Shown one piece after another: positions 14,528 through 31,499 of a stretch of DNA of 64,000 nucleotides. Every line of letters starts with the position of its first letter. Position 1 is the stretch's first letter. The notes beneath the pieces are model-generated. The model was given only the letters and a program-made list of their open reading frames with translations. It did no database searches and had not been told where the DNA came from. The DNA lies in the IMG/VR virus record IMGVR_UViG_3300021255_002352; one strand, written 5' to 3'. This DNA is from an uncultured virus (IMG/VR IMGVR_UViG_3300021255_002352) (taxonomy: Duplodnaviria > Heunggongvirae > Uroviricota > Caudoviricetes). The position numbers and the translations under genes are program-made.

Positions 14528-14641
14528 GTAAATTTCCTCCTAATTCTAACGAGTTTTTCGTTTCATAATAGCTCATGAAAAAAACGCGAATATAAACTAC
14601 CACCAGTAATGACGTTCAAACCAATAGTCTGCTTGTTGCAG

Positions 14642-15481
14642 TCAGTAAGCATTTTTGAACCCAGTTGTCGGATATTCTCCATATACAATTGGGAAACAAG
14701 CACATCCATCCCATTTACCGCCATGAACAGTTATAGGATCTCCGATTTCTGCAGTAAAGCCTTCATAAGGAGTGCTTCTGCTCCATCCAGAGCACATATA
14801 CATATCAGCTTGACAATCTGGTAAATTTTCAGTCAGCTTATCATCTAGGATATTCAACCATGTATAAAAACTCATGCTTTCTTCCCATGACTTATTCATC
14901 TCATCATAGCCTTTATTAATCGCGTACTTAACGTCCTCATTCGTTGACAAGAAGTATTGATTAGATACAGTTTCTAAATATAAACTTCTAAACTTCCCAT
15001 CATCTCCAGGAGCGATGATATTAATATTCTGAACCGGAGGATTATCATCAACATGGTCTTGCAGAATTGCATCCTGAATCTTCTGTTCCTTCTTTTCGCC
15101 AATCGTATCAATTACTTTTGCGCGATATTCGTCAAATGCAGACTTTGAAAGTTCATAAGCTGTTGCAAAAGCAGCGCTTCTTCTCAAACTAGTTGACACA
15201 GATCCAATAATGCATAATGTCGAACTAACACCAGTAATAACTGCAGGAGCATATGGCTGCCAAGTTGCCTTTATTGTTTGCACTGGCGTAAGTTCATCAA
15301 CGTTTAATTCTTCTTTTTTCTCCTCAATTCTGTTAATAGCTTCAGGAGTTGCTTTAACCGCAAGAACTGCTGTCGTAACAAATCCTCCAATACCGATACC
15401 AGCTAAAATTTCCGGCGTATGCTGTTTTGCTAATTTGGATAATCTAAAAAACGTGTTTGTAATAAAATCTGTAGTATTCAT
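14642..15481 (-). CDS. DUF6353-like protein (paralog of 12490-13440)
   Basis: KQHTPEILAGIGIGGFVTTAVLAVKATP...YAPAV...ATAY. Confidence 0.7.
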   Translation of the reverse strand: MNTTDFITNTFFRLSKLAKQHTPEILAGIGIGGFVTTAVLAVKATPEAINRIEEKKEELNVDELTPVQTIKATWQPYAPAVITGVSSTLCIIGSVSTSLRRSAAFATAYELSKSAFDEYRAKVIDTIGEKKEQKIQDAILQDHVDDNPPVQNINIIAPGDDGKFRSLYLETVSNQYFLSTNEDVKYAINKGYDEMNKSWEESMSFYTWLNILDDKLTENLPDCQADMYMCSGWSRSTPYEGFTAEIGDPITVHGGKWDGCACFPIVYGEYPTTGFKNAY

Positions 15482-15526
15482 TTCTTTCTCCTTTGCAAAG
15501 AATAAAAGAGCTTTTTATAGCTCTTT

Positions 15527-15745
15527 TTATCGATTTCTGAATTTTGATATAGTCTTTTTAGCCGAATTGACTACATTAGAAACTTGATAAGTAACCCATC
15601 CGAATGCTAGCGTAGATACACCTGCTACTACTGCTTCTTTTAAGCAGGTGACCACCTGGCTAAAATCCTTATCGGTTTTACCAATCTGAGTTTCTTCGTT
15701 TTTCTGTTCGACATCTTCTACATCTTTTACATCTTTAATCTCCAT
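15527..15745 (-). CDS. Cassette gene, small membrane protein
   Basis: Flanked by array motif and hairpin. Confidence 0.65.
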   Translation of the reverse strand: MEIKDVKDVEDVEQKNEETQIGKTDKDFSQVVTCLKEAVVAGVSTLAFGWVTYQVSNVVNSAKKTISKFRNR

Positions 15746-15805
15746 ATCAATAACTCCTTTCTCATAATACCCTTTGAAAAAATGAAGAGCATTTCTTAAT
15801 GCTCT

Positions 15806-15967
15806 CTACTTTCTAAATATGGCTTTAAAACAAAATCCCACAAATACAATACATAATACTATATCCGCTACTATTAGAATTCCTGTAAATCCTCCTGTCA
15901 ATAGGCACATTAATAACGCTAATAATGCGAATAAAATAATAGTTACTATAACTGTTAAAGTGATCAT
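15806..15967 (-). CDS. Cassette gene, 53-aa two-TM protein (absent from the ORF track)
   Basis: MITLTVIVTIILFALLALLMCLLTGG...; GAGGAGG RBS from the repeat. Confidence 0.7.
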   Translation of the reverse strand: MITLTVIVTIILFALLALLMCLLTGGFTGILIVADIVLCIVFVGFCFKAIFRK

Positions 15968-16023
15968 AAGTTCTATTACCTCCTCATTAGAGGATATGAA
16001 ATTTTTGCGAAAATAAAAGAGGT

Positions 16024-16422
16024 TTATAAACCCCTTCTATTAAAGTTAAAAATATCTCTTAGTGTTCCGACAATCCATTTTCCAGCGGAAGATACATACG
16101 AATTTGTCTTTTCAAATTCTGTAATATCTTTGAGCTGATTTCTTAATACCCACGATTTAAACATTAATCCGATTCCGCCAGCAGCAATCGGCGCTCCAAC
16201 GACAAAAATATCTTTTGTAGTGATCTGTTCTTGTTGCTCAATTCTCTTGAGTTCAACTTCCTTTTCACTATCAATTTTCTTATTCTCGTTTAAAACATTC
16301 GCAATTGCTGTAGCTTTAGCGATCAATTTCGTGTAGTCTTCCGAATCTGCATCGCAAGCATAAGCTTTGTCAAGGCAATCATTCATTGTGTCTTCCAAGT
16401 TTTTGATTGTTTTTTCTTCCAT
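16024..16422 (-). CDS. Cassette gene, hypothetical protein with one hydrophobic segment
   Basis: GGAGG RBS in the repeat; stop inside the hairpin. Confidence 0.7.
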   Translation of the reverse strand: MEEKTIKNLEDTMNDCLDKAYACDADSEDYTKLIAKATAIANVLNENKKIDSEKEVELKRIEQQEQITTKDIFVVGAPIAAGGIGLMFKSWVLRNQLKDITEFEKTNSYVSSAGKWIVGTLRDIFNFNRRGL

Positions 16423-16466
16423 AGTTTTTAACCTCCATTAAAGAGAATGGTTTTTTAACGAAAATA

Positions 16467-16649
16467 TCAATGATTTACTTTAATAATGGTTCTATACATT
16501 GCTCCAGTAGTTATAGAACCTAAAATATAACCGACAGTAAGACAACTTATCGCCATTATTCCTAGCGAAACAACCTTACCACTCTCCATTAGTTCAGAAA
16601 TCTCTTCTTTAATATCATTTTTTATTTCATCTTTTTGTTTCTTGAACAT
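16467..16649 (-). CDS. Small membrane protein
   Basis: Hydrophobic C-terminal half; TAATG coupling. Confidence 0.6.
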   Translation of the reverse strand: MFKKQKDEIKNDIKEEISELMESGKVVSLGIMAISCLTVGYILGSITTGAMYRTIIKVNH

Positions 16650-16924
16650 TACTCTCCTTTCTTAACTTGTTTGGTAATATCTTTTAATTTTCTTCTAGGC
16701 CATTTAATTCTTTGACCGCATTTAGAACAAAATGTATCGTTCTTTACATCATAGATTTGGTGTATTTCATTACATTTTGGGCAGATCCAAATATTTGTTA
16801 TGCCTCCATCTATCATTTTTGGAGGAATACCTTTATCTTTTTCATATAATTTTTGGATCTTTTTTATCGAATAGACTTTACCGAATATCCGTATTTCATC
16901 GAATGGATCCCTTCTAGCCATCAA
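16649..16924 (-). CDS. Zn-ribbon protein
   Basis: CPKC...FCSKCGQRIKW. Confidence 0.7.
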   Translation of the reverse strand: MMARRDPFDEIRIFGKVYSIKKIQKLYEKDKGIPPKMIDGGITNIWICPKCNEIHQIYDVKNDTFCSKCGQRIKWPRRKLKDITKQVKKGE

Positions 16925-17097
16925 AATCTCCTATTTATTATCAATTACACGTACTTCAAACATTTTATGGCCTTCATTATCAATATCGTTGATATGAACT
17001 TCGTAGCCATTAGCCAGGAAGATTGCCATCAATCGTCCAGCTTCACTAATATTCCTAATAATAAAAACCGATTCCTCGGCCTTCTTTGTTTGCTTCT

Positions 17098-17367
17098 TCA
17101 TTTTTTACTCTCCTTTTGCTTAGCTTTTCTATAAATAACACCTATAGTTCTCGGACTAATACACACGTTAAAATATTTTTGACACGTATATTTTTTATCA
17201 AAAACATTATTAAATAGCGCCCCAATCTGATTATATGTAAGTTTTTCTTCATCATGAAGCCGAACTATTTCTCTTGCTCTGAGTTCTTTTTGAAAAGCAG
17301 AAGTGTATCTTTTTCCTAAAATTTCATGCTTCCTATCATTAAAAGGTTCTTCACTTACACTAATCAT
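17098..17367 (-). CDS. Putative HTH DNA-binding protein
   Basis: EIVRLHDEEKLTYNQIG...ISPRTIGVIY. Confidence 0.5.
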   Translation of the reverse strand: MISVSEEPFNDRKHEILGKRYTSAFQKELRAREIVRLHDEEKLTYNQIGALFNNVFDKKYTCQKYFNVCISPRTIGVIYRKAKQKESKK

Positions 17368-17369
17368 TT

Positions 17370-17831
17370 TTACTCTCCTTTAAGACTTTTTACAAAATCC
17401 TTTGCGTCATTCGTAATCCAGTACCACTCGTCTGTTTTCTCATCGTATGCTTCGCCAAATATGGTGTGGTACATATAATCCGAGTCATAATATCCGACAC
17501 AGTTTGCGTATATCGGTTCTGATGCTTTATCAAATCCAAGCCTTGGAGTAGGCGACGGTAAATCAGGATTGCATCCCTGGATTTTCATTTCATCCACACA
17601 TTTTGACAAATTACTAAACCAATTCCAGTGATCGGATAATCTAAAGCTTCTTAATGGCTTACTATAATAAGTAACCTGTTTTCTTGTTCCTTTTGGAATC
17701 AAATATAAGGACTTGTCATTGTTACATGACTTCATTACTTCATATTGTTCTCCACTTAATAAAGCAGATAATTCATTAAAAAATACTTTGCATTCATTAA
17801 AAGCTTCTTTTTCAGTCTTTATTAATTCCAT
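17370..17831 (-). CDS. Conserved phage hypothetical protein
   Basis: SLYLIP, KPLRSFRLSDHWNW. Confidence 0.65.
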   Translation of the reverse strand: MELIKTEKEAFNECKVFFNELSALLSGEQYEVMKSCNNDKSLYLIPKGTRKQVTYYSKPLRSFRLSDHWNWFSNLSKCVDEMKIQGCNPDLPSPTPRLGFDKASEPIYANCVGYYDSDYMYHTIFGEAYDEKTDEWYWITNDAKDFVKSLKGE

Positions 17832-17913
17832 TTTTACTCTCCTTTAAATTCCTGTACTTTATTAAAATATCTTTTAAATCAGTCACCTACATGCGAAAGA
17901 AAAGAATAGACGC

Positions 17914-18678
17914 TTAAACACGCCTATTCTTTAACTGTTCTCTAAATAGCACCGTCGATTTGTCTCTTTGGTGATAGTTATACAAAGCCTCAAGATACTG
18001 CATGGCCTGATCTTTTGTAGCTGCCGACGGCAAGATCATTCTTCCATGTTTATCCAGTTTATCAATCATACGTTGAGGATCAATAATATCATTCATGAGA
18101 AGGTCAATCAGGATCTTCTTATAACTTGACATGGTTTTGATGCCAATTGTTTTCAGGCTTTCATTCATAATGACAAGCGACTTTAAGACTTCTCTTGCTT
18201 TAAAGAACTGCTCGTCGTTGATATGAACATAACCTCTTTTAAGATTATCCTGTTTGTGCTTTCCGACGACCACATCGAGAATATCAGACAAACTTACCTT
18301 AGGAAACTCTGTCTGAAGATTCTTCAATCGCTTGTAGCTGCTATTGCCATCTTCGGCATACGCTTTGACATAATCACTTCCAGACCAGCCCTTTTTCATA
18401 GAGTTCTTTTTAGCAACGTCATAGATGGACATGTTCTTGACAACCATGAACTTGACAGGAGTTCCTGACTTTTTAGCAGCCATGAAACGATGCTGGCCAT
18501 CTTCAATCTGAAGTTTACCATCGTCCAAGACAGAAACCTCAATTGGAGCACCCTGCCAACCGTTTTCAAGCATACTATCAGCGATTTTATCGATGTGCTT
18601 GAGGTCAACATCACGATTTGCTGTTCTAAAGACAAATTCGTCATACCTTGAGGTAGTGTAGATAAAGTTTTCTTTCAT
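17914..18678 (-). CDS. ParB N-terminal-like domain protein
   Basis: NRDVD..HI..IADSM..GW..PIEV...IEDGQHRFMAAK. Confidence 0.75.
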   Translation of the reverse strand: MKENFIYTTSRYDEFVFRTANRDVDLKHIDKIADSMLENGWQGAPIEVSVLDDGKLQIEDGQHRFMAAKKSGTPVKFMVVKNMSIYDVAKKNSMKKGWSGSDYVKAYAEDGNSSYKRLKNLQTEFPKVSLSDILDVVVGKHKQDNLKRGYVHINDEQFFKAREVLKSLVIMNESLKTIGIKTMSSYKKILIDLLMNDIIDPQRMIDKLDKHGRMILPSAATKDQAMQYLEALYNYHQRDKSTVLFREQLKNRRV

Positions 18679-18680
18679 GT

Positions 18681-18863
18681 TTACTCTCCTTTTACTTCGT
18701 TAATATCAATTCCTAAATAATCCAAATAGTCGAGAAAATAATTCTCGTTAGTGTATTGTTTGCATTCTCCGCATTTTGTGGTATAAGCATCAACGAACTC
18801 TCCATTTTCGTTATAAACAGCTGAAATATCACCATGACGAATTGCCAAATAATACGTTTTCAT
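18681..18863 (-). CDS. Hypothetical protein
   Basis: ORF ending KGE* in a junction motif. Confidence 0.55.
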   Translation of the reverse strand: MKTYYLAIRHGDISAVYNENGEFVDAYTTKCGECKQYTNENYFLDYLDYLGIDINEVKGE

Positions 18864-18865
18864 AT

Positions 18866-19084
18866 CTATTTAGTTTCCTTTACTTCAACAATCAAATATT
18901 TACGTTTATGCAATTCTTCAATAGGACAAAGAATCATCAAATTATACTTGTCTTTTTCCGGATTAGAAATATCAATATGCATAATTGCATCTACTTTTCG
19001 ATAAGTTATAATCATAGATCCAATAACGCCAACTAATAGCCCTAATACAACAGATGAGAATATGACATACTGTATATAGCTCAT
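18866..19084 (-). CDS. Small membrane protein
   Basis: N-terminal TM helix. Confidence 0.6.
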   Translation of the reverse strand: MSYIQYVIFSSVVLGLLVGVIGSMIITYRKVDAIMHIDISNPEKDKYNLMILCPIEELHKRKYLIVEVKETK

Positions 19085-19086
19085 AT

Positions 19087-19494
19087 TTAATAGCTCCTTA
19101 TAACCTCGTACACTGTTTCTTGGATTCTGTCTTTTTCATTTACTGGATTCCCAATTTCAGTAATAGATTTTAGAGTGTTTCCATCATAATAATTAAAGGC
19201 TTGATAATATGCTTCGCATTTTTCGTAAATATCGTCAGGAATTGAAAAATCCGATTCGTAATAGCTAACCGGATTATAGGTTCCTTCAAGATAATGTGGT
19301 TCGCAACGCCTAGTTTTTAGATAGAAGCAATTATCATCAAAACCGACAATCTCTCTTGGGCAATCAAATATCTGCGCATATACGTTTCTTTCAATTGCAT
19401 GTATCGGTGTTTTGACGAGTTTTAATCCCCAAATCTTTCCGTTTTTAATGTCTAACTTTAAATCTTCTTGTACTTCTTTTGGCATGTATTTCAC
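19087..19494 (-). CDS. Hypothetical protein
   Basis: 135-aa ORF with GTG start and GAGG RBS. Confidence 0.6.
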   Translation of the reverse strand: MKYMPKEVQEDLKLDIKNGKIWGLKLVKTPIHAIERNVYAQIFDCPREIVGFDDNCFYLKTRRCEPHYLEGTYNPVSYYESDFSIPDDIYEKCEAYYQAFNYYDGNTLKSITEIGNPVNEKDRIQETVYEVIRSY

Positions 19495-19497
19495 TTT

Positions 19498-20040
19498 TTA
19501 TTCCTCGTCTTTTTCTTCGTTATTAGAATTCTTGTAAATGACTTTTACTTCTCTTTCAGTGGTCGTGAGATTTTCTTTCAAAGTCTTTGCTAATTCAAGT
19601 TTCAGATTAGCCAATTCCTTTTCATGCTCTATCTCTTTTCTTAATTGCTCAGTTTTAGAACGCTCTTCCTTAGCTTTAGCATAGACGCCATCAGCTTTGG
19701 AAATATACTCTTGCAATTCTTTTCGAATTTTAGCTTCAATAGCCGGAGTAATCTCGTTTTGATAAGCAAGTTTTGTTTGCTGAAGCTTATGGCGTTCTTC
19801 TCTTACTAAAGCCCTAGTTCCTTCCACTTCAGCATTAGCTTTTTGAGCTTTCGCAGCTGCTTCTTCGGAATCTAACTTTCTCATTCTGAGACGTTCTTCC
19901 TCTTCTTTCATGCGAATGATTTTTTCTTCAGGAGTGTTGTAGTCGTCATACTTCTTCTGAAGTAAGGCACCTGCACCTGAACCTAAACCGAAAAAACTTA
20001 ATGCAATAATGATTTGTTCTTTTGTAATTTTGAATTCCAT
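19498..20040 (-). CDS. Membrane-anchored coiled-coil protein
   Basis: Start moved to MEFKITK after AAAGGA; TM segment then E/K-rich coil. Confidence 0.65.
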   Translation of the reverse strand: MEFKITKEQIIIALSFFGLGSGAGALLQKKYDDYNTPEEKIIRMKEEEERLRMRKLDSEEAAAKAQKANAEVEGTRALVREERHKLQQTKLAYQNEITPAIEAKIRKELQEYISKADGVYAKAKEERSKTEQLRKEIEHEKELANLKLELAKTLKENLTTTEREVKVIYKNSNNEEKDEE

Positions 20041-20280
20041 AATTATTTCCTTTCTTAATTTGTAAAAAATAAAGGAGAAGAGCCTATGTGTATAGACCCT
20101 CTCCTTGCTGCGGTTTGAGAAATAAGAGGTATGATTCCGCAGGCTAACTCGATACACCATCCTTTACATTTTTATCTATGTAAAAGGCTTGTGCCCTGAT
20201 TAGCTTGTTTTTCATACTCATATATTTAATCAACCCCCTTTCAATAAAGGCAATGAAAAAAACGCGAAAAATAAAGAGCC

Positions 20281-20475
20281 TTATTCAGACTCTTTTTCTG
20301 CTTCATTAATGATTCGTTCACAAGCATCCGCTTGGCCATATTGAACTCCAGCATTAAACGAATGGTTAACAATCGATCCGATTCCTAAACCACCAATAAA
20401 TGCTAAAGCTAGCTTTTTTAAATTAGCGTTTCTTTTAATACTTGCAAACTCCTTGTTAATGAATTCTCTTGTCAT
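20281..20475 (-). CDS. Cassette gene, ends KESE*
   Basis: RBS and stop both supplied by repeats. Confidence 0.7.
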   Translation of the reverse strand: MTREFINKEFASIKRNANLKKLALAFIGGLGIGSIVNHSFNAGVQYGQADACERIINEAEKESE

Positions 20476-20518
20476 ATAAAATCACCTCCATAATAATGTA
20501 TGAAAAAATAAAGAGTCG

Positions 20519-20599
20519 TTATGAATGGCTCCTTTCAAGTCCACTCATACCGACCCATAAGATCATGCAAATGACCAATGTAACAATTGTTCTAATCAT
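20519..20599 (-). CDS. Cassette micro-gene, 26-aa hydrophobic peptide (MIRTIVTLVICMILWVGMSGLERSHS)
   Basis: Translated by hand; GAGG RBS; stop inside the hairpin. Confidence 0.55.
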   Translation of the reverse strand: MIRTIVTLVICMILWVGMSGLERSHS

Positions 20600-20684
20600 T
20601 TCTTCATACCTCTTTTCCATTAAAGGGCATGAAAAAAACGCGAAAGAAAAAAAATAAAGGATCATGATTGATCCAATATTTTTG

Positions 20685-20903
20685 CTATGAATTAGTTATA
20701 ACGTTTTTAATTATCCATAATAGCCAAAATGGCCATAGCCATAATATTGCTGACATTCCAAATGTAAGCATAAGTACACCGCTAATCTTTTCCCAAATAT
20801 CCATTTTTGGATCATAGATTGTATCATGAATTGTGCCTATGCTATTTGAAAATATCATCACACATACCATAGCAATAATACCAATTAAAATATAAACTTT
20901 CAT
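20685..20903 (-). CDS. Cassette gene, two-TM protein
   Basis: Start MKVYIL after GGAGG. Confidence 0.7.
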   Translation of the reverse strand: MKVYILIGIIAMVCVMIFSNSIGTIHDTIYDPKMDIWEKISGVLMLTFGMSAILWLWPFWLLWIIKNVITNS

Positions 20904-20945
20904 AGTTCTATACCTCCATAACAGAGATTGAAAAAACAAAGAGCC

Positions 20946-21191
20946 TTATTCAGACTCTTTCATGCTCAGGTACATAATACCTGCTAAGATCAAAGTTAAT
21001 GGCCAGCAAATACTCATCATTGCAAATACTAGTTGATACATCAATAGCAATCCTGGAATACTTATTTTGAAGCAATCAATGCTTTTAATTGCATTGATTA
21101 ATTCTTCACTAAGTTCGTCTTCCATAATTACCAATATAACTACTCCAGCAAACATAATAAATGCTATAAACCAATAAATAAATCTAAACAT
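20946..21191 (-). CDS. Cassette gene, two-TM protein, ends KESE*
   Basis: Repeat-derived RBS and stop. Confidence 0.7.
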   Translation of the reverse strand: MFRFIYWFIAFIMFAGVVILVIMEDELSEELINAIKSIDCFKISIPGLLLMYQLVFAMMSICWPLTLILAGIMYLSMKESE

Positions 21192-21244
21192 AATTATTTA
21201 CCTCCATAATAGAGGATGGTTTTATCGCGAAAGAAAAAGAGAGT

Positions 21245-21388
21245 TTACAATTCACTCTCTTCTCTTAGCATTTCAATATACTCCTTTACAAATTCTTTAG
21301 CTTCGTTCATTGAAATCCGAATCGCTACCAAATATCCAACGGTAGCAAATACAGTAATAATTAAAGCTTTTAAAATGAATAATAACAT
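21245..21388 (-). CDS. Cassette gene, 47-aa TM protein (absent from the ORF track)
   Basis: MLLFILKALIITVFATVGYLVAIR...EESEL*. Confidence 0.65.
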   Translation of the reverse strand: MLLFILKALIITVFATVGYLVAIRISMNEAKEFVKEYIEMLREESEL

Positions 21389-21430
21389 ATTGATTTACCT
21401 CCATAATAGAACATGAAAAAGAAAAGAGTA

Positions 21431-21640
21431 TTAGTCTCTATTTAAGACAAATACTATCTTTTCATCGATGATTTTACCAGCATCATCAAGCTGAAGATCG
21501 ACTCGTTCCATAATATAGTCAAATCCCTTTATGGCTTCGTCTTCAATCTCCGGCCAATCATAAGCTATGATCTTTCCTAATCCGATCAAGCTGATAACTG
21601 ACACAGCAAATAAGCAAACTAAACCAATAAATTTCTTCAT
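21431..21640 (-). CDS. Cassette gene, N-terminal TM or signal peptide
   Basis: Repeat-flanked ORF. Confidence 0.65.
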   Translation of the reverse strand: MKKFIGLVCLFAVSVISLIGLGKIIAYDWPEIEDEAIKGFDYIMERVDLQLDDAGKIIDEKIVFVLNRD

Positions 21641-21713
21641 GTTCTATTACCTCTTTTCTTAATCTTTCTCACTAAAGAGGCTGTAATTTACGCGAACAAA
21701 AAGAAAAGAGCGA

Positions 21714-21914
21714 CTACATTAATCGCTCAATCTCTGGATTGTAAACCTTGAAAAATAATTTCAAGCTAATAATAGATGATATCAGTGTAAGCATTGCATA
21801 TAAGTTAGTAATATCATAATATAGCATCAAAATTGATACTAACAATACGCCTAATAATAACATCATTGTAATAAATCCACTGATTAAGTGTGTTATTCTT
21901 TTAATTTTTTTCAT
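21714..21914 (-). CDS. Cassette gene, two-TM protein
   Basis: Repeat-flanked ORF. Confidence 0.65.
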   Translation of the reverse strand: MKKIKRITHLISGFITMMLLLGVLLVSILMLYYDITNLYAMLTLISSIISLKLFFKVYNPEIERLM

Positions 21915-21995
21915 TGTATTTACCTCTCATTAAAGAGCCAGAAATAAAAACGAAAAAATAAAGAGCAATAAAAGCTCTTTACTATTTTGAAATAT

Positions 21996-23837: not shown

Positions 23838-23879
23838 TTTCTTTACCTCCTCATAAGAGAGTGAGAAAAATAAAAGAGC

Positions 23880-24089
23880 TTAATCAAGCTCTTCTCCATC
23901 AGGATTCTTACCATTTGTCACGTTATTCATCCTTCTAACAGTTTCCTTATTTAGAACAAACGAAACGGAGCTATAGCGAATAATATCCCAAATAAATCTG
24001 CATTTATCTTTGAAACACATTCCTCCTAATTCAACTCTAAGATCCTTGTTCTTGTTTACTTCATACTGAATATAATGATTGTCTTCCAT
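23880..24089 (-). CDS. Cassette gene, paralog of 28697-28897
   Basis: MEDNHYIQY..NKNKDLRVELGGMCFKDK. Confidence 0.7.
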   Translation of the reverse strand: MEDNHYIQYEVNKNKDLRVELGGMCFKDKCRFIWDIIRYSSVSFVLNKETVRRMNNVTNGKNPDGEELD

Positions 24090-24121
24090 AATAAGACCTC
24101 CTTCATTAAAGACTTTGTGCT

Positions 24122-24538
24122 TTACGCGATATCTTTCTTTTTCTGATCCAGAATGTAAAAGAATCGTCTATATAGCGTATAAAACATATCTTTTCCGCAA
24201 GGTATTCCATCATGCATTCTAAAATATGTATATGTTAGTCCTTGAGTAACGGCTTTAAAAATATAATCACCAATTACCGGATCGGTCATATCACAGCATT
24301 CTCTGATAAGATCCATTTGATCTAAATACTCCTGACGTACTTTTATGCTTTCGTCCGTGTACAAAACATCATCAGACTTTACATGAATTATCCCACCTGG
24401 AATTTTTTCACATAAATCATTGTATTTTCTTTTGAACTCTGGATATTGCAAACAGAAATGCTTTAATTCGTAATATCGATGTTTTGAAATATAATATGGA
24501 TTAGATTTTGAAATCTCAGATCTTATTACTGTTCCCAT
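24122..24538 (-). CDS. Conserved phage protein, possible RinA/ArpU-like transcriptional activator
   Basis: ISKHRYYELKHFCLQY...IPCGKDMFY..YRRFFY; function inferred. Confidence 0.5.
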   Translation of the reverse strand: MGTVIRSEISKSNPYYISKHRYYELKHFCLQYPEFKRKYNDLCEKIPGGIIHVKSDDVLYTDESIKVRQEYLDQMDLIRECCDMTDPVIGDYIFKAVTQGLTYTYFRMHDGIPCGKDMFYTLYRRFFYILDQKKKDIA

Positions 24539-24770
24539 CGTACAAATATCCTGTTTCCTCGTATAGTTTTCTTGGAGAAATATAATAATTTATTCTCCCC
24601 TTCTTTGAACTGATTTCCCTAGTTGATGTAACTTGTTCGCCATTCCTAGTGGCAAAGCCGATTTGTAACCATCCAGATATCAATCCAGCACGAATCCAAC
24701 TAGGATCTTTTTTATACACCTTAGCCGCAACTGATACAGGAACAGAACGTTCCAAATTATAGATAGACAT
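24516..24770 (-). CDS. Putative excisionase-like winged-helix DNA-binding protein
   Basis: VPVSVAAKVYKKDPSWIRAGL...YYISP. Confidence 0.5.
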   Translation of the reverse strand: MSIYNLERSVPVSVAAKVYKKDPSWIRAGLISGWLQIGFATRNGEQVTSTREISSKKGRINYYISPRKLYEETGYLYDGNSNKI

Positions 24771-24898
24771 ATATACCTCCTTTTCTATCTAATAATTCAA
24801 TGTTAATTTTTAATTCTGTCACCTATGTCCGTAATTGTAAATCGCAAAAACAAAAGAGCATGATAATAAAAAAGAAAAGGGATATAAATCCCTCTGCA

Positions 24899-25048
24899 TT
24901 AGCCAAAATAGCTAATTAATGATCTCAGATAAGTCTCATCCTTCTCCATGTAATCGGATGCTTCTTCCAATGTAAAGCCACCCTCTTTCATAAGAGCTCT
25001 CAGTAATCTGTAATCCGAATAAGCAATTCTGTCTAAATTTGTTTTCAT
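24899..25048 (-). CDS. Cassette gene, small HTH-like protein
   Basis: MKTNLDRI...GFTLEEASDYMEKDETYLRSL. Confidence 0.55.
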   Translation of the reverse strand: MKTNLDRIAYSDYRLLRALMKEGGFTLEEASDYMEKDETYLRSLISYFG

Positions 25049-25192
25049 TATTATTACCTCTTTTCCTTCATTAAAGAGGCTGAAAAAAACGCGAATTAAA
25101 TTCAAGTGGAACGAATCATTTTGAAATTTCAAGACTTGTTATTACATATTTTTAAAGAGATAATAACTATACAAATTATGAGGAGAAAAATC

Positions 25193-25372
25193 ATGCAAGA
25201 ATTAGATTTCAGCAACGCAGATCCAGCTGATCTCGCTGAGTACACGGACATCACGAATCAAATTGAGTCACTTGGACCAGATGACAAGGATGAGTTAAGA
25301 AAGCTCCTAAAACGCAGAGCAAAGGTAATGAGCCGCATATTAGGAGCGAACGTGCATTCTGTAGTTGACTAA
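25193..25372 (+). CDS. Only plus-strand gene inside the array, 59 aa
   Basis: TTATGAGGAG RBS near 25176-25185; stop runs into a shared hairpin. Confidence 0.6.
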   Translation: MQELDFSNADPADLAEYTDITNQIESLGPDDKDELRKLLKRRAKVMSRILGANVHSVVD

Positions 25373-25402
25373 AAAGAAGAGCCCTTGATAGGCTCTTTTA
25401 TT
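25373..25402. terminator. Bidirectional intrinsic terminator
   Basis: AAAAGAAGAGCC-cttgata-GGCTCTTTTATTT between convergent genes. Confidence 0.7.
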
Positions 25403-25701
25403 TAGAATTCGAGTACAGATTCTTTTCCAACAATATATCCGTACTTTATATTTCCAAATAATTTAATCCTCTCTAAAATGAGCCCTCTTTTTGTGAATTC
25501 CTTCACAAGATCTTCAAAATTCTTGTCATAAAGAAGAATATCCCATGCATTTTTGATTTCTAAAGTCTCCCATGCGATTAAATACTTATTGTCGTCAATA
25601 AATCCTATTGGCTTCGCTTCCAATGAATTTTCCACCAGAAATTTGACGAAATCGTTTGAAGCTTCAGATTCAACATAAAATGTGTAATTCTTTTCTTCCA
25701 T
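25402..25701 (-). CDS. Cassette gene, hypothetical
   Basis: Start MEEKNY after GAGGAGG. Confidence 0.7.
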   Translation of the reverse strand: MEEKNYTFYVESEASNDFVKFLVENSLEAKPIGFIDDNKYLIAWETLEIKNAWDILLYDKNFEDLVKEFTKRGLILERIKLFGNIKYGYIVGKESVLEF

Positions 25702-25789
25702 TTTGAATTCCTCCTCATAAAACAAAATGATTTTATCGCGTATACCGGTAACCTCTGTACGAAAAATAAAAGAGTCTTATTCGGACTCT

Positions 25790-25972
25790 TTATCGCTTGC
25801 TAAGTAAATACTTTGTTAATAAGGTTACACCTACGCCAAATATACAACCAATAAAAAAGTTTCCTTGACAGTTAAGTTCTGTCATTTTATCAATTCTATT
25901 AAGTTGCTCTTCAGTATAAGTTTTCTTTTCCTCATCATTTAGTTTTACTCTAACAGTAATAAAGTTTTTCAT
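25790..25972 (-). CDS. Cassette gene with C-terminal TM
   Basis: Flanked by 76-bp near-identical direct repeats. Confidence 0.65.
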   Translation of the reverse strand: MKNFITVRVKLNDEEKKTYTEEQLNRIDKMTELNCQGNFFIGCIFGVGVTLLTKYLLSKR

Positions 25973-26047
25973 ATATAAACTCCTTTCATAAAACAGCTTG
26001 ATTTTATCGCGTATACAGGTAACCTCTGTACGAAAAATAAAAGAGCC

Positions 26048-26305
26048 TTATTCGGACTCTTTTGATTCTGCAATTCGCTTCTTTTCCAATTCAAGATCAT
26101 GAATACAGCGTCTCACATGTGACTCAGGAAGATCGAGTTTTTCTGCAATTTGGATAGGTGTTAAACCCATATCCGAATATGCTTCGATTTTACCCAATCT
26201 TCTATTTCGTCCAACTTGATACGCCAAATGATTCTTAAACCAAGCGATCTGTTCGTCTAAAGTTTTTCCTTCTAAAACATCTTTCATTCTGATAATTCCA
26301 GCCAT
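26048..26305 (-). CDS. Cassette gene, HTH protein (sigma region 4-like), ends KESE*
   Basis: MGLTPIQIAEKLDLPESHVRRCI. Confidence 0.7.
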   Translation of the reverse strand: MAGIIRMKDVLEGKTLDEQIAWFKNHLAYQVGRNRRLGKIEAYSDMGLTPIQIAEKLDLPESHVRRCIHDLELEKKRIAESKESE

Positions 26306-26458
26306 ATAAAAATGACCTCCTTTCATTAAAGGCTACGAAAAATAAAAGAGACTGATGGCATTAACTAAACCGGACTATGGGCCAACTCTTTGGCTTGCAA
26401 GTTAAATTTTATAATAACCATTTTGTCTCCATTAAAGAACATGAAAAATAAAAGAGTC

Positions 26459-26674
26459 TTATTCGGACTCCTTATTCTTTTGGTTCTTATTCTTTACAAG
26501 TTCATAGCCAATAAGACATACTGCAAATGCTGATCCAATCAGTATTCCATGTTTAAATCCTTCATCATATGCATCCATTAAAGCTGGATACACAAAATCC
26601 GGATTAAAATCAACGTATGGATCACATAAACTGCTAAATATTTCATTAACGGTTTTTGCTCTTGGTGTAAGCAT
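26459..26674 (-). CDS. Cassette gene with C-terminal TM, ends KESE*
   Basis: Repeat-flanked. Confidence 0.65.
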   Translation of the reverse strand: MLTPRAKTVNEIFSSLCDPYVDFNPDFVYPALMDAYDEGFKHGILIGSAFAVCLIGYELVKNKNQKNKESE

Positions 26675-26712
26675 AAAAACCCTCCTTTCCATTAAAGACT
26701 AAGAAAAATAAA

Positions 26713-26782
26713 AGCGTTTGAATAATTCTAATTGATCTCTCCCCAATTCCCATATAAATGGGAGTCTAATTAGAATAACGCT
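26713..26782 (-). ncRNA. Non-coding cassette, long hairpin
   Basis: AGCGTT/AACGCT, ATTCTAATT/AATTAGAAT and TCCCAT/ATGGGA nested stems; no SD after repeat 26819. Confidence 0.45.
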
Positions 26783-26858
26783 AAATATTTAACTAAACAG
26801 TATGGTTCTGTTTTGTTTCATAATACAATCTGAAAAATACGCGAAAAAATAAAAGAGA

Positions 26859-27179
26859 CTATTTGCTAGTCTCCAAAGGTTTGTAGAATTTTTCTGCATC
26901 GCATTCCAATTCAAATTTTCCTTCTGATGACATCTTATATATTTCATAGACTTCATTTTCTGGTAATCCTAAATGATCCAGCCAGTCTACAAAATAGCTT
27001 CTATGATATAGACCTTTTGGATTCTTAACTTTAGCATAACACCCACTAAAATCGCCTACTCTATTTGCCCAAGATGCAACATACCTTGAATACGGAATTC
27101 CTTGTGATGAGATTTTATTCTCGTTCCAATTCTCGGGAATACCTCCAATAGTAAACTCTCTTATTTCAATATTACTCAT
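26859..27179 (-). CDS. Cassette gene, conserved phage hypothetical
   Basis: IPYSRYVASW...FVDWL..LGL....GKFELE. Confidence 0.7.
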   Translation of the reverse strand: MSNIEIREFTIGGIPENWNENKISSQGIPYSRYVASWANRVGDFSGCYAKVKNPKGLYHRSYFVDWLDHLGLPENEVYEIYKMSSEGKFELECDAEKFYKPLETSK

Positions 27180-27223
27180 TATGTAATACCTCCTCATAAT
27201 AGAATGAGAAAAATAAAAGAGTC

Positions 27224-27400
27224 TTATTCAGACTCTGATACATGAAAATACTGGCATAATTCATGATTAGCTTTTCTAGACTTGTATGACTTGATAATCG
27301 GTGACCATCGTTTAGCAATGCTCTTCATAGCGTCGTACATTACTTTAATAGCCATCGTTTCAACAGTTTCCTCTACAAATTCATTATCATTTTTAATCAT
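27224..27400 (-). CDS. Cassette gene, ends SESE*
   Basis: Start MIKNDNEF after the repeat RBS. Confidence 0.6.
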   Translation of the reverse strand: MIKNDNEFVEETVETMAIKVMYDAMKSIAKRWSPIIKSYKSRKANHELCQYFHVSESE

Positions 27401-27446
27401 AAATGTTTCCTCTCTTTCATAATAGAATAGGAAAAATAAAAGAGCC

Positions 27447-27584
27447 TTATTTAGGCTCCATGCTGTTTTTGACGAGATGCCAATCTTTGTCATCCCATAA
27501 TCTTTCAAAAGTCTCTAAATCATCAGAATCAACAGTAACCTTTTCATCTGTGATTTCATTTTGAAATACTATAGTAAAACCCAT
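27447..27584 (-). CDS. Cassette gene, 45-aa acidic protein (absent from the ORF track)
   Basis: MGFTIVFQNEITDEKVTVDSDD...; GGAGG RBS; stop in the hairpin loop. Confidence 0.65.
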   Translation of the reverse strand: MGFTIVFQNEITDEKVTVDSDDLETFERLWDDKDWHLVKNSMEPK

Positions 27585-27649
27585 TTTGCATTTCCTCCTT
27601 CATTAAAGAGTGAGAAAAATAAAAGAGTTTGAATAAACTCAAGCTCTTT

Positions 27650-27820
27650 TTATTCAATTGTAATCTCGATTGAATTAGCTAAGTTAACATAATAGAGTTT
27701 ATGATAAATATTTTCCATTTCTAAAAATCCATTTTCTAGATGTATAGAGTCTTTTATAATATCTTCATATCTACGTTCCTCTCTATTTGCATAATTAATT
27801 ATTACTTTAACCCAATTCAT
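27650..27820 (-). CDS. Cassette gene, 56 aa (absent from the ORF track)
   Basis: MNWVKVIINYANREERRYED...; GGAGG RBS. Confidence 0.65.
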   Translation of the reverse strand: MNWVKVIINYANREERRYEDIIKDSIHLENGFLEMENIYHKLYYVNLANSIEITIE

Positions 27821-27867
27821 TTGATTAATCCTCCTTCATAAGAGAATAGGAAAAATAAAAGAGTCAG

Positions 27868-28299
27868 TTAAGACTCTTTTGGTTCTGGAATTACAACATA
27901 CCAATAATTCCAATGATGAAATCCTTGTTTCCATCGATTTGTTATTCTATCTGTATTCTGATCGGCATGTACGATTATGCTTTCAATTGGTTCATTATAT
28001 TCGAATTCATAGCTAAAATCATCTTTCTTCCATACGTAATCCTTAGTAGTCATAAGTACATTCCTTATAATATCATCAGTCCATAATCTTATATCGTGAT
28101 CATAAACTGAACGATTAATATAACAAACTTTTTCTTTGTTTTCTACTATAATAGGATCGTCCATATAAAAAGCTGCATTATACATATGATTTATAAATTC
28201 ACCAACTGTAATACAATCTTTTTTCTTAAAATTGTAGTCAAAATACCCAATAATCTCTGATAGATTAACAGAATTTCTTTCTGATATAAATGTGATCAT
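27868..28299 (-). CDS. Cassette gene, ends KES*
   Basis: Repeat-flanked 143-aa ORF. Confidence 0.7.
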   Translation of the reverse strand: MITFISERNSVNLSEIIGYFDYNFKKKDCITVGEFINHMYNAAFYMDDPIIVENKEKVCYINRSVYDHDIRLWTDDIIRNVLMTTKDYVWKKDDFSYEFEYNEPIESIIVHADQNTDRITNRWKQGFHHWNYWYVVIPEPKES

Positions 28300-28340
28300 T
28301 CCATTACCTCCTCATAAAACAATAGGAAAAATAAAAGAGA

Positions 28341-28649
28341 CTATGATAAGTCTCTAATCTGTGACAGTAAATTAACTACATCCTCATCTGTCAAGTAACC
28401 TTCTACATCATCTGTGATGCCCGTATCATATACAAGTACAAATTGATCAACGTTGTCTAGATCTGTGTATTTAATAACCGCTAATTCCCAAAGATCTTCA
28501 TTAGATCCATACGAACCGTAGTGTTTTACAACAGATCCTCCGTATCCATTATCAAATTTGAACAAGTATTGAATACCATCAAATAAAGGTGCTTTCTTTA
28601 CTAAATAGTTCTCAAAACCGTCATAATTCAGATTTAAATTCTTTGTCAT
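28341..28649 (-). CDS. Cassette gene, widespread phage hypothetical
   Basis: FKFDNGYGGSVV..GSYG...LWELAV....DDVEGYLT. Confidence 0.75.
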   Translation of the reverse strand: MTKNLNLNYDGFENYLVKKAPLFDGIQYLFKFDNGYGGSVVKHYGSYGSNEDLWELAVIKYTDLDNVDQFVLVYDTGITDDVEGYLTDEDVVNLLSQIRDLS

Positions 28650-28696
28650 AAATATTTTCCTCTCTTTCATAAGAGAATAAGAAAAATAAAAGAGCC

Positions 28697-28897
28697 TTAT
28701 TCAGACTCTTTATCTTGTTTGTCAACGATAGACGCCATTTTGAGTATAGTCTGCTTTCGTATAACAACATTGAAACTGTTAAACCTGAATAATTCGTAAA
28801 TAAATTTCATTTTTTCTTTGAAATTCATTCCTCCGATTTCAACTTTCACGTCACCATTTTTGTTGTGACCAAACTCAATATAATGTTTGTCTTCCAT
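28697..28897 (-). CDS. Cassette gene, paralog of 23880-24089, ends KESE*
   Basis: MEDKHYIEF..NKNGDVKVEIGGMNFKEK. Confidence 0.7.
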   Translation of the reverse strand: MEDKHYIEFGHNKNGDVKVEIGGMNFKEKMKFIYELFRFNSFNVVIRKQTILKMASIVDKQDKESE

Positions 28898-28947
28898 AAT
28901 TGGCTAACCTCCTTCATAAAAGAATAGGAAAAATAAAAGAGCCTTTA

Positions 28948-29130
28948 TCAAATAGACTCTTTTAAAATTTTTGTTAGACTTAAAACCTCTAAAGCATTAG
29001 CAATAATATTATCATCTGAATAAAGATCTTCAGTATGAACATGTTGCCTTGCGACATATATGTTTCTTGCAAGTTCCTCAATTCTATTTAAAGATTCTTT
29101 CATTTTATTTTCATTCCTAATGATTTTCAT
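28948..29130 (-). CDS. Cassette gene, ends KESI*
   Basis: Repeat-flanked. Confidence 0.65.
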   Translation of the reverse strand: MKIIRNENKMKESLNRIEELARNIYVARQHVHTEDLYSDDNIIANALEVLSLTKILKESI

Positions 29131-29189
29131 ATTTTTTATTCCTCCTCATAATACAGTAGGAAAAATAAAAGAGGATATATTATTCCTCT

Positions 29190-29393
29190 TTATAACCATT
29201 CATAAATCATGGCTGCATAATAATGTTTATAAAAAATATCAACCCATCGGGCATTGCTTTCCGCTCCAGCAAAGTCTGGTTCGTCTTTGTTCAGACACTC
29301 CATGGCTTTTTCTGAGAAATCACGCATGCCTTTTGCATAATACATTAATGCATCCTTCTTTGATTTAAAATGATTAAGATTATAAATACCCAT
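29190..29393 (-). CDS. Cassette gene, hypothetical
   Basis: Start MGIYNL after GAGGAGG. Confidence 0.65.
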   Translation of the reverse strand: MGIYNLNHFKSKKDALMYYAKGMRDFSEKAMECLNKDEPDFAGAESNARWVDIFYKHYYAAMIYEWL

Positions 29394-29426
29394 CTTTTTC
29401 CTCCTCATAAAAGAGGAAGAAAAATA

Positions 29427-29571
29427 AAAGAAACTGCATGCTTACATTGTCCGCCATGCTAACGGCCTCCTTTAACTATCCTCGTTCCACGTATTGATAA
29501 CCGTTCAATACCGTTTGTTTCTCTAAACCTGGTGGTTAACCAGTACCAGCTATACGTTTGGTAGTTTCTTT
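29427..29571 (-). ncRNA. Non-coding cassette, multi-stem structured RNA candidate
   Basis: AAAGAAACTAC/GCAGTTTCTTT closing stem; internal CTGGT/ACCAG, GTATTGA/TCAATAC and CCGTTA/TGGCGG hairpins. Confidence 0.55.
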
Positions 29572-29602
29572 CTCATAATAGAACGCGAAAAATAAAAGAG
29601 CC

Positions 29603-30049
29603 TTATTCAGACTCTTTACCAGGATAATTATCATCGTAATCTTTAAGTTTTACCTCACTCCAAACAATTTTATGGCCTTTATCCAAATCTTTTCCAATTC
29701 TCGGCCGCTTTAGTAATTTAATTTGAATGGATTTTGACTTTAATTTTGATTTAAACTCCTTATATTTTTCTTCTGTTAAACCAATTGTAAATATAATCTC
29801 CGGGATTCTTCTACAGTATCCTTTAGTCCACATTGCGTAAACTTCATTCTCAACGCAATCTTCTAAATTCATACTTTTTAGAATTCCTAAGGTTGTATTT
29901 ATACAAAACTCGCCTTCTACAGAAAGCCTATATAAAGTACATAAACCTCCTAATTTTTCATCCATTTTTTCTGCATAATAAAGCTGACGCCATTCATAAT
30001 GATCTTGCATGGCACCATAATAATCGTTTTTGTAATCACCAAATTTCAT
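29603..30049 (-). CDS. Cassette gene, ends KESE*
   Basis: Start MKFGDY after GGAGG. Confidence 0.7.
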   Translation of the reverse strand: MKFGDYKNDYYGAMQDHYEWRQLYYAEKMDEKLGGLCTLYRLSVEGEFCINTTLGILKSMNLEDCVENEVYAMWTKGYCRRIPEIIFTIGLTEEKYKEFKSKLKSKSIQIKLLKRPRIGKDLDKGHKIVWSEVKLKDYDDNYPGKESE

Positions 30050-30093
30050 AATTATTTCCTCCTTCATTAAAGAGTTGGAAAAATAAAAGAGCC

Positions 30094-30318
30094 TTATTCG
30101 GACTCTTCTTCCTTAAAGTCATATGCACTAACATAGTATCTGCAATGCACCTTAATGCCATCTCTGTAATCATAATAACTTTCTGTATGATTTAAATAAT
30201 CGGCTTCTTTTTCTGCCATATTTCTACTAGCATAAATATCTGGCCAAATTTTTTCGTCATAATGTCCATTACTATACCTTCTTTCGCAAGTGATCACATA
30301 TACATATTTTAATTCCAT
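30094..30318 (-). CDS. Integrase-proximal cassette gene, ends EESE*
   Basis: Start MELKYV after AAAGGAG. Confidence 0.7.
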   Translation of the reverse strand: MELKYVYVITCERRYSNGHYDEKIWPDIYASRNMAEKEADYLNHTESYYDYRDGIKVHCRYYVSAYDFKEEESE

Positions 30319-30422
30319 AATAGTACTCCTTTCATAAAACCATCTGCAATTCGCACGAAGGTTACGATGTGATATGATGTAATTGGTTCGTACATAAGTC
30401 ATTTCTAAGAAAGGAGAGAATA

Positions 30423-31499
30423 ATGACTAGAACCAAAAGACATATGAAGCTGCCAAACGGATTTGGACAAATATCCAAGCTAAAAGCACCTTTACGTAAA
30501 CCATTCAGAGCAATGATCACTATTGGAACGAATGAATCTGGCAAACCAATCTGTAAAATACTCAAGCCTCAAGGATACTTTGAAACCTACAATGATGCAT
30601 ACCTTGCATTAGTAGAATATCATCAGGATCCTTCAAAAGCTTTTCAAGAAATTTCCCTTGGTGAAATTTTTCAGAAATGGTTTGAAGACACTTCAGACGA
30701 CCGTAACGATCATACAAATCGTTATTATGAAACCGCATGGAAACATATTGCGAAATATGAGAATGTAAGATTCAAAGATATCAAGATTCCATTAATCAAG
30801 CAAATGGTAGCAGATAAAGATCTTAATGCTTCTGCTCCTGCTCAGATCAAAAACCTTATGAATCAACTATACGACTATGCAGTTGAACACGAAATCGTAC
30901 AACAGAATCTCTCGAGAATGACAAAAATAAAAGGAGCTGTTAGCCGAACGATAAAGAATCACCATATGACATTCACAGACGAAGAAATATCTAAACTCTG
31001 GAAGAATATCAATGATTACTACGTTAGAGCCATTTTAATACAGTGCTACAGCGGATTTCGTCCAGGTGAGCTCTGTGATCTTAAAGTAGAAAATATCCAT
31101 GTAGACGAGAACTATATGGTCGGAGGATTCAAAACTGAAGCCGGAACAGACAGAATTGTTCCAATTCATCCAGCGATTAAGGATCTTATAATTAAGCAGC
31201 TGGAAATCGCAAAAATAAAAGGCAGTGAATATTTGATGCTCAATAGGAAAGACGGAAAGCTTACACCGGCAATTTATCGAACAATGTTTATCGATATAGT
31301 TAAGCAACTCGATCTCAATCCGGAACATAAATGCCATGATCCGCGTAAGTATTTTGTCAGTCAAGCCAAGAAATATCAATTAGATGAGTATGCCATTAAG
31401 CGTATAGTTGGGCATACGATTACTGACTTGACCGAATCAGTTTATACAGAACGAGGTATAGGTTGGTTGTATTCTGAGATATGCAAGATTCCAGGATGA
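30423..31499 (+). CDS. int: Tyrosine recombinase / phage integrase
   Basis: N-terminal KLPNGFGQISKL..RKPF arm-binding-like domain; catalytic R (GFRPGEL), K (KTEAG), HDPR, VGH, Y (VYT). Confidence 0.93.
   Translation: MTRTKRHMKLPNGFGQISKLKAPLRKPFRAMITIGTNESGKPICKILKPQGYFETYNDAYLALVEYHQDPSKAFQEISLGEIFQKWFEDTSDDRNDHTNRYYETAWKHIAKYENVRFKDIKIPLIKQMVADKDLNASAPAQIKNLMNQLYDYAVEHEIVQQNLSRMTKIKGAVSRTIKNHHMTFTDEEISKLWKNINDYYVRAILIQCYSGFRPGELCDLKVENIHVDENYMVGGFKTEAGTDRIVPIHPAIKDLIIKQLEIAKIKGSEYLMLNRKDGKLTPAIYRTMFIDIVKQLDLNPEHKCHDPRKYFVSQAKKYQLDEYAIKRIVGHTITDLTESVYTERGIGWLYSEICKIPG

Follow-up and report, generated by a model that had tools for sequence, protein, structure and literature searches.

Can a phage keep its accessory genes in something like an integron? 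The question is raised by a 64,000-nucleotide stretch of DNA from an uncultured virus of the Caudoviricetes (IMG/VR record IMGVR_UViG_3300021255_002352; this whole stretch is referred to below as the window), in which a row of small co-oriented units, parted by copies of one junction element, runs away from a divergent tyrosine integrase. An initial annotation made from the sequence had proposed an integron-like cassette array, and had named as its counter-hypothesis terminator/promoter units shuffled by homologous recombination, with phages like Lactococcus phage 1706 as a precedent. Our analysis favours that counter-hypothesis, and the 1706-like precedent was borne out. We consider it likely that the locus holds ~32 short, self-contained terminator–promoter cassettes which are shuffled by general recombination and in which the integrase is uninvolved. 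The window phage appears to be a temperate siphophage that belongs to the Oengus/1706 lineage and comes from a ruminant gut, and the array proper (20064–30345, minus strand), with ~28 small coding units and four units without an open reading frame (ORF), all co-oriented and junction-bounded, is placed between the lysis/lysogeny and replication genes.

A strand-specific, terminator-shaped junction

The junction is shaped as an intrinsic terminator, is strictly strand-specific, is confined to the array region, and marks the differences in gene content and order between relatives. On the minus strand, which carries almost all of the window's genes, it consists of AAAGAG, a variable inner stem and loop (usually containing a stop codon) and the T-run core CTCTTTTATTTTTC, followed by 5 nt, the box yTnTWATGR, the Shine–Dalgarno sequence (SD) AGGAGG, ~7 nt and ATG. 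Allowing up to two mismatches, the core was found 38 times in the window compared to 3.27 ± 2.04 times in 100 shuffled sequences, none of which reached 38, and the co-oriented single-gene units parted by a conserved minus-strand junction that had first drawn attention to the locus are real. The cores are split between 33 on the minus (gene) strand and five on the plus strand, and 31 of the 33 lie within 20064–30091 with a core-to-core spacing of 106–491 bp. The full canonical form (core, 5 nt, box and SD) is present in 22 copies, and when 24 related sequences were considered the number of canonical junctions rose to 168, of which 145 were unique, with the consensus unchanged. The earlier count of about 40 units over 14564–30333 was nonetheless too generous, as the 31 cores in 20064–30091 are joined by just two weak outliers below 20 kb (15497–15510 and 16008–16021, minus strand, between genes of the replication-side operon), and the genes from 16.4 to 20.1 kb form a closely packed operon in which the element is missing.

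The boundary stems are perfect, 7–10 bp long and followed by the T-run, as in terminators, with ΔG values ranging from −7.2 to −12.6 kcal/mol for all but one of the 27 hairpins computed, and 48 terminator-like sites were found in 14000–32500 compared to 6.8 ± 2.6 in shuffled sequences. In two complete relatives the combined T-run/box pattern occurred 18 and 0 times on the two strands of one genome and 0 and 21 times on those of the other (reversed-pattern controls gave 0), and 16/18 and 20/21 of these copies were located in or beside the ~10-kb array.

Rearrangement at the junctions and the box as a candidate promoter

Motif scans yielded two complete IMG/VR phages (84–85 kb), two metagenome contigs (71–81 kb) and 19 short contigs. 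The window and the four long relatives share their flanks and differ in cassette content and order at the junctions, and cassette maps of these five sequences indicated that the interior varies at single-cassette resolution, with many cassettes present or absent and two neighbours swapped. One gene which is second in the window lies behind a 131-aa gene in contig C, the first box is joined directly to the second cassette in one contig, and the first array position is occupied by a 74-aa gene in the window, by family 0 in D and L012, and by family 52 in A and B. Adjacency was broken at 55/109 junctions with the motif vs 19/107 boundaries without it (Fisher 4e-7; these figures are from ordered pairs of the five genomes and hence are not independent). 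Of 15 joints listed for contigs from two other studies, 11 had both ends within −17..+40 of a core or the first box, and the four failing joints had sides of 21–24 letters which were flagged as unreliable by the tool. The units therefore behave as the cassettes that had been proposed, being gained, lost and reordered at the element. Some contig joints that appeared to go back were considered as possible cassette circles, a reading which we rejected, since a different cassette order or motif pieces of 39 nt accounted for them.

The place of the exchange was located with a strict three-way test of junctions having both a close left-hand and a close right-hand comparator, in which the position of the parent switch was determined (this replaced a spacer linkage test, for which the loosely defined protein families were too diverged). 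There were 12 unique cases: in three the switch falls within the T-run core (−1..13), in seven it falls within the stretch of spacer, box and SD (17..36), and two are uninformative. As these two sets of intervals are disjoint, the crossovers do not share one base; the expectation of breakpoints at the element was correct, but that of one fixed base was not. In relative B, an inserted cassette has on each side one of two identical junction copies, which are at least 34 nt long (A/B 6440). We suggest that the ~45 bp of near-identity offered by each junction would supply the homology that the phage annealing protein or host RecA needs for general recombination, and cassette rearrangements would be expected because of these repeats and that protein. 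Recombination between junctions could then delete, duplicate, insert or reorder cassettes and leave their neighbours undisturbed. The candidate enzyme for such short-repeat recombination is the single-strand annealing protein encoded at 6135–6632 (minus strand; phrog_4787, E 6.7e-52).

The same layout was found in two cultured phages. In FP_oengus (NC_047916), a divergent integrase is followed by 13 small genes parted by a hairpin with a T-run and by the box CGCGAAAAAT.CA-N5-CTTTATGG, which has 11 copies on the gene strand and none on the other and lies upstream of the SD by 20–35 nt. A tRNA-like gene at 2935–3006 (called by ARAGORN as 'tRNA-???' with the anticodon 'ga') directly adjoins one of the copies. 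When FP_oengus was compared with a related prophage, 4/4 indels or replacements were bounded by boxes or terminators, with the tRNA-like unit among them. We note that this unit (2910–3034) is a single cassette between a box and a terminator, and that it is missing from prophage L040. Phage 1706 (NC_010576) has nine copies of TTTTACAyAnnCTATAGTAGAAAG, all on the gene strand and behind hairpin and T-run units, and here too a tRNA is found as a single cassette between box and terminator (about 31057–31200). Both phages thus share with the window lineage, synteny, small genes parted by a hairpin, T-run and strand-specific box, and tRNA or tRNA-like units amid the small genes, but their boxes have lineage-specific sequences, their arrays are less regular and not as long, and no fixed distance holds between T-run and box. 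No description of these Oengus/1706-lineage repeats was found in the literature searched, which did not extend to the original 1706 paper (Garneau et al. 2008), and the words promoter, terminator, repeat and intergenic have zero occurrences in preprint 10.1101/842583.

The box itself is probably a promoter of a kind other than sigma-70, judging from its sequence and placement. Its long form, TCGCG-N7-CA-N5-yTnTWATG, has 35 unique copies in the window's group in exactly the register of the 11 FP_oengus copies, and the box is also found upstream of the four window units without an ORF. These positions, the conserved register and the separation from the SD in FP_oengus, together with its place before tRNA-like units, argue that the box is unlikely to be a mere ribosome feature. 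A sigma-70 promoter was tried and rejected, as sites of this type were not enriched (83 compared to 83.5 ± 10.3 in shuffled sequences) and a transcript begun at the customary distance would lack the SD; the second position of the box is variable and there is no TTGACA-like partner at 16–18 bp. We infer instead that the box is a compact promoter, that transcripts begin at it or immediately behind it, and that it is recognised by a factor which the phage specifies. Each unit begins with the conserved box and finishes with the hairpin and T-run, which under this reading would terminate the upstream transcript, and each cassette would then be its own transcription unit, with the box read by the lineage's YonO/RdRP-like polymerase or some other phage factor. 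Two RNA-library runs contain pieces of the array, including one contig crossing a junction, but as such contigs may include DNA and break at repeats they are silent on transcription, starts and ends. A further motif, ACAGAGGTTACC(T)G, precedes both long-form boxes (25986–26031 and 25715–25760, minus strand), and variants of it precede a conserved 84-aa gene (upstream of 24770) in the window, A, D and L023; this may be a second class of regulatory site.

An RdRP/YonO-like protein with helix–turn–helix (HTH) ends has been reported for the lineage in preprint 10.1101/842583. We found a homologue of ~1000 aa, 48% identical to the FP_oengus 'putative RNA polymerase', in both complete relatives (L036 (G002) 1474–4470, and also L037 (G003)). 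It has a weak Pfam RdRP (PF05183) match over residues 565–704 which is below the cutoff (E 1.4e-4; 21.2 vs 23.8 bits) and a sigma-70 region-4-like HTH at the C-terminus; a PDB sequence search with the protein returned nothing significant. We tentatively raise the possibility, which we regard as less probable than not being so, that the box is the promoter of this single-chain YonO/RdRP-like RNA polymerase with its HTH domains. If true, the thirty-odd box copies of this phage and the co-varying FP_oengus and 1706 versions would be the first promoter consensus for the polymerase family, the hairpin with CTC and T-run would be its terminator, and the phage would run a private transcription system over freely shuffling plug-in genes and small RNAs. 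The promoter recognised by YonO itself was left open in a 2017 paper (PMC5467207). There are now dozens of aligned copies of a non-sigma-70 box, and as versions of it are present in two cultured phages, the promoter specificity of the lineage's RdRP/YonO-like polymerase is directly testable.

The integrase and the competing readings

The tyrosine integrase (30423–31499, plus strand), which is divergent from the array, appears to be a neighbour outside the cassette mechanism. It carries PF00589 with a sub-threshold match to SAM_5, and the lambda-type arm-binding N-terminus attributed to it by the initial annotation was not confirmed by Pfam. Its best matches are generic Xer or phage integrases, with the Xer-type likeness being distant (the top NCBIfam match was to a XerA-like model with 67.7 bits, below the cutoff of 220). 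The attP-like region ascribed to it was recovered in the repeat-bearing stretch behind the gene (31500–31773), which has ATGTAGGAA at 31542 and 31704 and an inverted copy at 31509–31518; this repeat was looked for in the array and is absent from it. An integrase homologue was also sought in Lactococcus phage 1706 and none was found, though 1706 shows the same array layout. In a Faecalibacterium genome bin we found an FP_oengus-like prophage in which the integrase, 40% identical to that of the window, is the last phage gene before a uracil-DNA glycosylase, a DinG-like helicase and a folate enzyme. This location at the prophage–chromosome border is the position of a lysogeny enzyme, and the integrase would therefore seem to perform lysogenic integration at its own attP and to have no part in array shuffling.

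At the integrase-proximal end of the array is the entry region (30320–30400, minus strand), where the first unit has the box GTTTTATGA (30340–30332) and SD and is without hairpin and T-run, as the initial annotation had noticed. This half-site and the ~55 nt upstream of it are conserved in the window, D and A, and the integrases of the relatives which keep this stretch are merely 48% identical. Compared to contig C, the lysogeny module is a 2.3-kb indel (window about 29479–31735; C merged 4700–4830) that takes in the attP-like DNA, integrase, first box and first two cassettes together with a portion of a non-coding unit. The joint lies at a short GGAGG-like microhomology and not at a canonical junction, and a TATAAT-bearing stretch just upstream is common to the window and C.

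Integrons comprise IntI, attI, attC cassettes and Pc. An integron-like platform, in which the adjacent tyrosine recombinase would capture and excise cassettes at folded hairpins with the hairpin-less first unit being attI-like, is matched here by the geometry of a divergent tyrosine recombinase beside single-ORF units that all point the same way and each have a hairpin 3', and by a first cassette position that differs among relatives. The recombinase is not, however, of the IntI type, scoring 19 bits against the integron-integrase model TIGR02249 (cutoff 265), and it has its own attP-like repeats which the array lacks. Arrays also persist without it, both in phage 1706 and in relative C, where the array is the closest to that of the window and yet the integrase is absent at the syntenic place and within the 17.6 kb examined, and the orthologous enzyme stands at the prophage–chromosome border in the Faecalibacterium prophage. 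The boundary, moreover, is a perfect-stem terminator with a U-tract and not an imperfect attC with extrahelical bases (a judgement based on anatomy and not on an attC covariance model), the crossover intervals fall in two non-overlapping segments in place of one fixed base, and the cassettes appear to carry their own promoter-like box. We consider an integron mechanism the least probable of the readings weighed here, and the integron interpretation is rejected.

The remaining alternatives concern what the repeats do. The array might be a single early operon with leaky terminators or antitermination, in which the integrase-proximal region and a few long-form sites are the sole starts and transcription continues through the weak hairpins, possibly aided by a phage antiterminator. 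The box would then be an RNA-level signal for translation or processing and not a promoter, and homologous shuffling at the repeats would still hold. The hairpins are AT-rich and weak, with ~3 G–C pairs each and a ΔG of about −8 to −10 kcal/mol, and the product of gene 24122–24538 has antitermination-type language-model neighbours (a lead only), but ~30 serial terminators would starve the downstream replication genes unless antitermination were very efficient. In the same way, the position of the SD directly after the box in the short form and the lack of enrichment of canonical sigma-70 promoters would suit such an operon, whereas a box that also heads units lacking ORF and SD as well as tRNA and tRNA-like genes, and that is 20–35 nt from the SD in FP_oengus, would not; nor would the long form, which is bipartite, ~27 nt long, fixed in spacing and conserved across hosts, and so resembles a protein-read DNA site. 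Altogether we find the early operon unlikely, though it is the most credible of the alternatives. It might also be argued that the repeats are purely regulatory and that the cassette differences arose by illegitimate recombination or horizontal replacement, since the motif is on nearly every gene boundary in the array and the coincidence with breakpoints is partly built in. Against this, the parental switches were located at base resolution inside conserved junction blocks and not in genes, insertions are bordered by identical junction copies at least 34 nt long, 11/15 contig joints are within the element, and boundaries without a junction beside the array are far more stable (19/107 broken). 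We regard this explanation as highly improbable.

It should be noted that the reading we prefer, of terminator–promoter cassettes shuffled by general recombination, has several points against it. Homologous recombination is deduced from crossover locations, and the 12 three-way cases include reciprocal views and represent ~7 independent events, with comparators that are 75–95% identical and some positions that match neither parent. The promoter and terminator roles of the junction are predicted from position, shape and conservation. As the short-form box is followed at once by the SD, a start spaced from a −10 element in the customary way would cut off the SD, and the promoter reading works only if initiation occurs inside the box or immediately after it. 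The polymerase gene is outside the window, which ends before it; no box was found before the structural genes, and nothing links the polymerase to the box directly.

Comparable systems, cargo and genome context

By analogy, the closest known system appears to be the promoter-early stem-loops (PeSLs) of T4-type myoviruses, which are terminator and promoter repeats between small ORFans (Arbiol et al. 2010, PMC2839356; Comeau et al. 2014, PMC4122927). A mechanism of homologous recombination on patches of <50 bp was proposed in one of these (PMC2839356), and the authors compared the layout with integrons, found no dedicated recombinase, and showed promoter activity, terminator activity and mini-circles experimentally (PMC2839356, PMC4122927). 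The two systems have in common small ORFan genes in a hyperplastic region, parted by a composite repeat (here with a terminator shape and a putative promoter), with the indels and replacements between relatives at the repeats. They differ in that the host here is a temperate Firmicutes siphophage, with a siphophage-type structural module and tape measure protein in the window in place of those of a T4-type myovirus, and in that the units form one contiguous block of ~30. The T-run is fused to the box at a fixed 5 nt with the SD inside the repeat, coding sequence frequently extends into the 5' arm of the hairpin, some units are non-coding or tRNA-like, and the box is not sigma-70-like, where PeSLs have a strong sigma-70-like early promoter. 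PeSL activities and mini-circles are also experimental results, while the promoter and terminator activities of our array are predicted.

A second comparison is with the bacterial promoter-coupled terminators in which a termination signal overlaps the next promoter (Fletcher et al., bioRxiv 10.64898/2026.08.19.745784). These share with the junction a downstream promoter element directly after the T-tract and a contribution of terminator DNA to the promoter. They differ in using host sigma-70 with the stem as the −35 element, whereas here the stem-derived hexamer is unlike TTGACA, the −11 of the would-be −10 element is variable, and the repeats are also recombination points. The 'phage integron' candidate would thus turn out to be the PeSL principle in a lineage of temperate siphophages of gut Firmicutes, in which it is undescribed in the literature searched, and self-contained terminator–promoter cassettes look like a general way to keep fast-turnover accessory genes beyond the T4-type phages.

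With ~28 ORFan proteins and some putatively structured non-coding units, the cargo makes up a delimited pool that might be searched for host-takeover or anti-defence functions. None of 32 cassette proteins had a Pfam match above cutoff (0/32), and 4/32 had PHROG matches, each to a PHROG of unknown function. The claim that the enclosed genes are unrelated was for the most part upheld by this; what it missed is that one protein family is present twice (28697–28897 and 23880–24089) and that four units have no ORF. Hydrophobicity was scored for 30 cassette proteins, and 8/30 had a hydrophobic stretch. Five of these eight come from consecutive cassettes at 20685–21914 (minus strand), which encode a run of small membrane proteins of 47–81 aa with a Kyte–Doolittle 19-residue mean of 2.3–2.8. 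At some cassette 3' ends (29603, 28697, 26459, 26048 and 20946) the reading frame runs through the 5' arm of the hairpin to a stop codon in the loop, and because of this 9/30 scored proteins end in ..ES(E) (KESE and similar), a shared C-terminal tail that is put on unrelated cassette proteins by the repeat.

The centre of the array (24122–25400) has no canonical junctions and contains genes 24899–25048, 24516–24770 and 24122–24538, plus a divergent gene at 25193–25372 (plus strand) encoding 59 aa. The genes for 84-aa and 138-aa proteins (PHROGs 6058 and 11237, function unknown) are kept in all five long relatives. The language-model neighbours of the 138-aa protein (24122–24538) include DUF722, DUF1492 and Phage_antitermQ clusters at a score of 0.92, which we treat as a lead only, and a PDB sequence search with this product gave no significant match; the protein may regulate transcription of the array or of late genes.

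The four units without an ORF are candidates for structured RNAs held in place of coding sequence. All are on the minus strand: 29433–29586 consists of a box, ~140 nt and a hairpin with T-run, and its final 50 nt are common to relative C; 26717–26843 is identical in C and has a fold z-score of −2.69; 26351–26442 has no conserved ORF, its 18-codon frame being truncated in relative D, and a closing stem spans the whole unit; and 22763–22869 has a 9-bp closing stem round four hairpins, one of which is like a tRNA T-arm. The fold z-scores of the four (−0.39, −2.69, −2.18 and −0.59) are not decisive. ARAGORN and Rfam scans of the window returned no tRNA and nothing at the gathering level, and Rfam at an E-value threshold gave just sub-threshold, chance-level matches for these units and for a relative's 190-nt unit. 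The unit 22763–22869, in which one hairpin has a tRNA-like T-loop (GGTTCAACTCC), was not called by either program. Relatives A, B and L022 have a unit of 184–191 nt (L003 about 6347–6537; L022 1404–1587) with two GGTTTGAA(T/A)CC hairpins, in which one stem varies from TCGG/CCGA to TTGG/CCAA, also with no Rfam or ARAGORN call.

Listed in the direction of transcription and all on the minus strand, the cores matching the consensus perfectly are those at 30078–30091 (box 5 nt downstream), 29587–29600 (which opens a unit without an ORF), 29160–29173, 28928–28941, 28681–28694, 28326–28339, 27850–27863, 27614–27627, 27431–27444, 27208–27221, 26443–26456 (which opens the unit without a conserved ORF), 26337–26350, 26032–26045 and 25761–25774 (followed by long-form boxes at 26011–25986 and 25740–25715, respectively), 23865–23878, and 23344–23357 (box 16 nt downstream). 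One mismatch is found at 29419–29432, 26844–26857 (followed by the long-form box CGCG-N7-CA-N5-TATTATGA and opening a unit without an ORF), 26703–26716, 23596–23609, 22870–22883 (also opening a unit without an ORF), 22509–22522, 22210–22223 and 21415–21428. Two mismatches are found in the degenerate core at 24845–24858, from which the canonical box is absent, and at 22749–22762, 21952–21965, 21697–21710, 20930–20943, 20502–20515 and 20064–20077, the last being the final core of the array and without a box.

Along the direction of transcription, PHROG matches place the portal, protease/capsid and tail genes and a 2509-aa tape measure protein before the tail fibres and the endolysin/holin-like genes, which are followed by the divergent integrase and the row of small genes, and then by a ParB-like gene, DUF6353 proteins, a 1374-aa primase–polymerase, the single-strand annealing protein and a helicase. 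The primase–polymerase matched 261 phage records, 13 of them from Lactococcus, with the top named phage being FP_oengus (Faecalibacterium) at 54.8% identity. Near-identical DNA was sought in the cultured-phage collection and none was found, the motif is absent from the closest record (G001, a 29-kb fragment), and a motif scan over 185,579 species genomes gave 0 matches. The sequencing runs which contain the array are labelled as bovine or gut metagenomes, and long related contigs are present in two runs from other studies.

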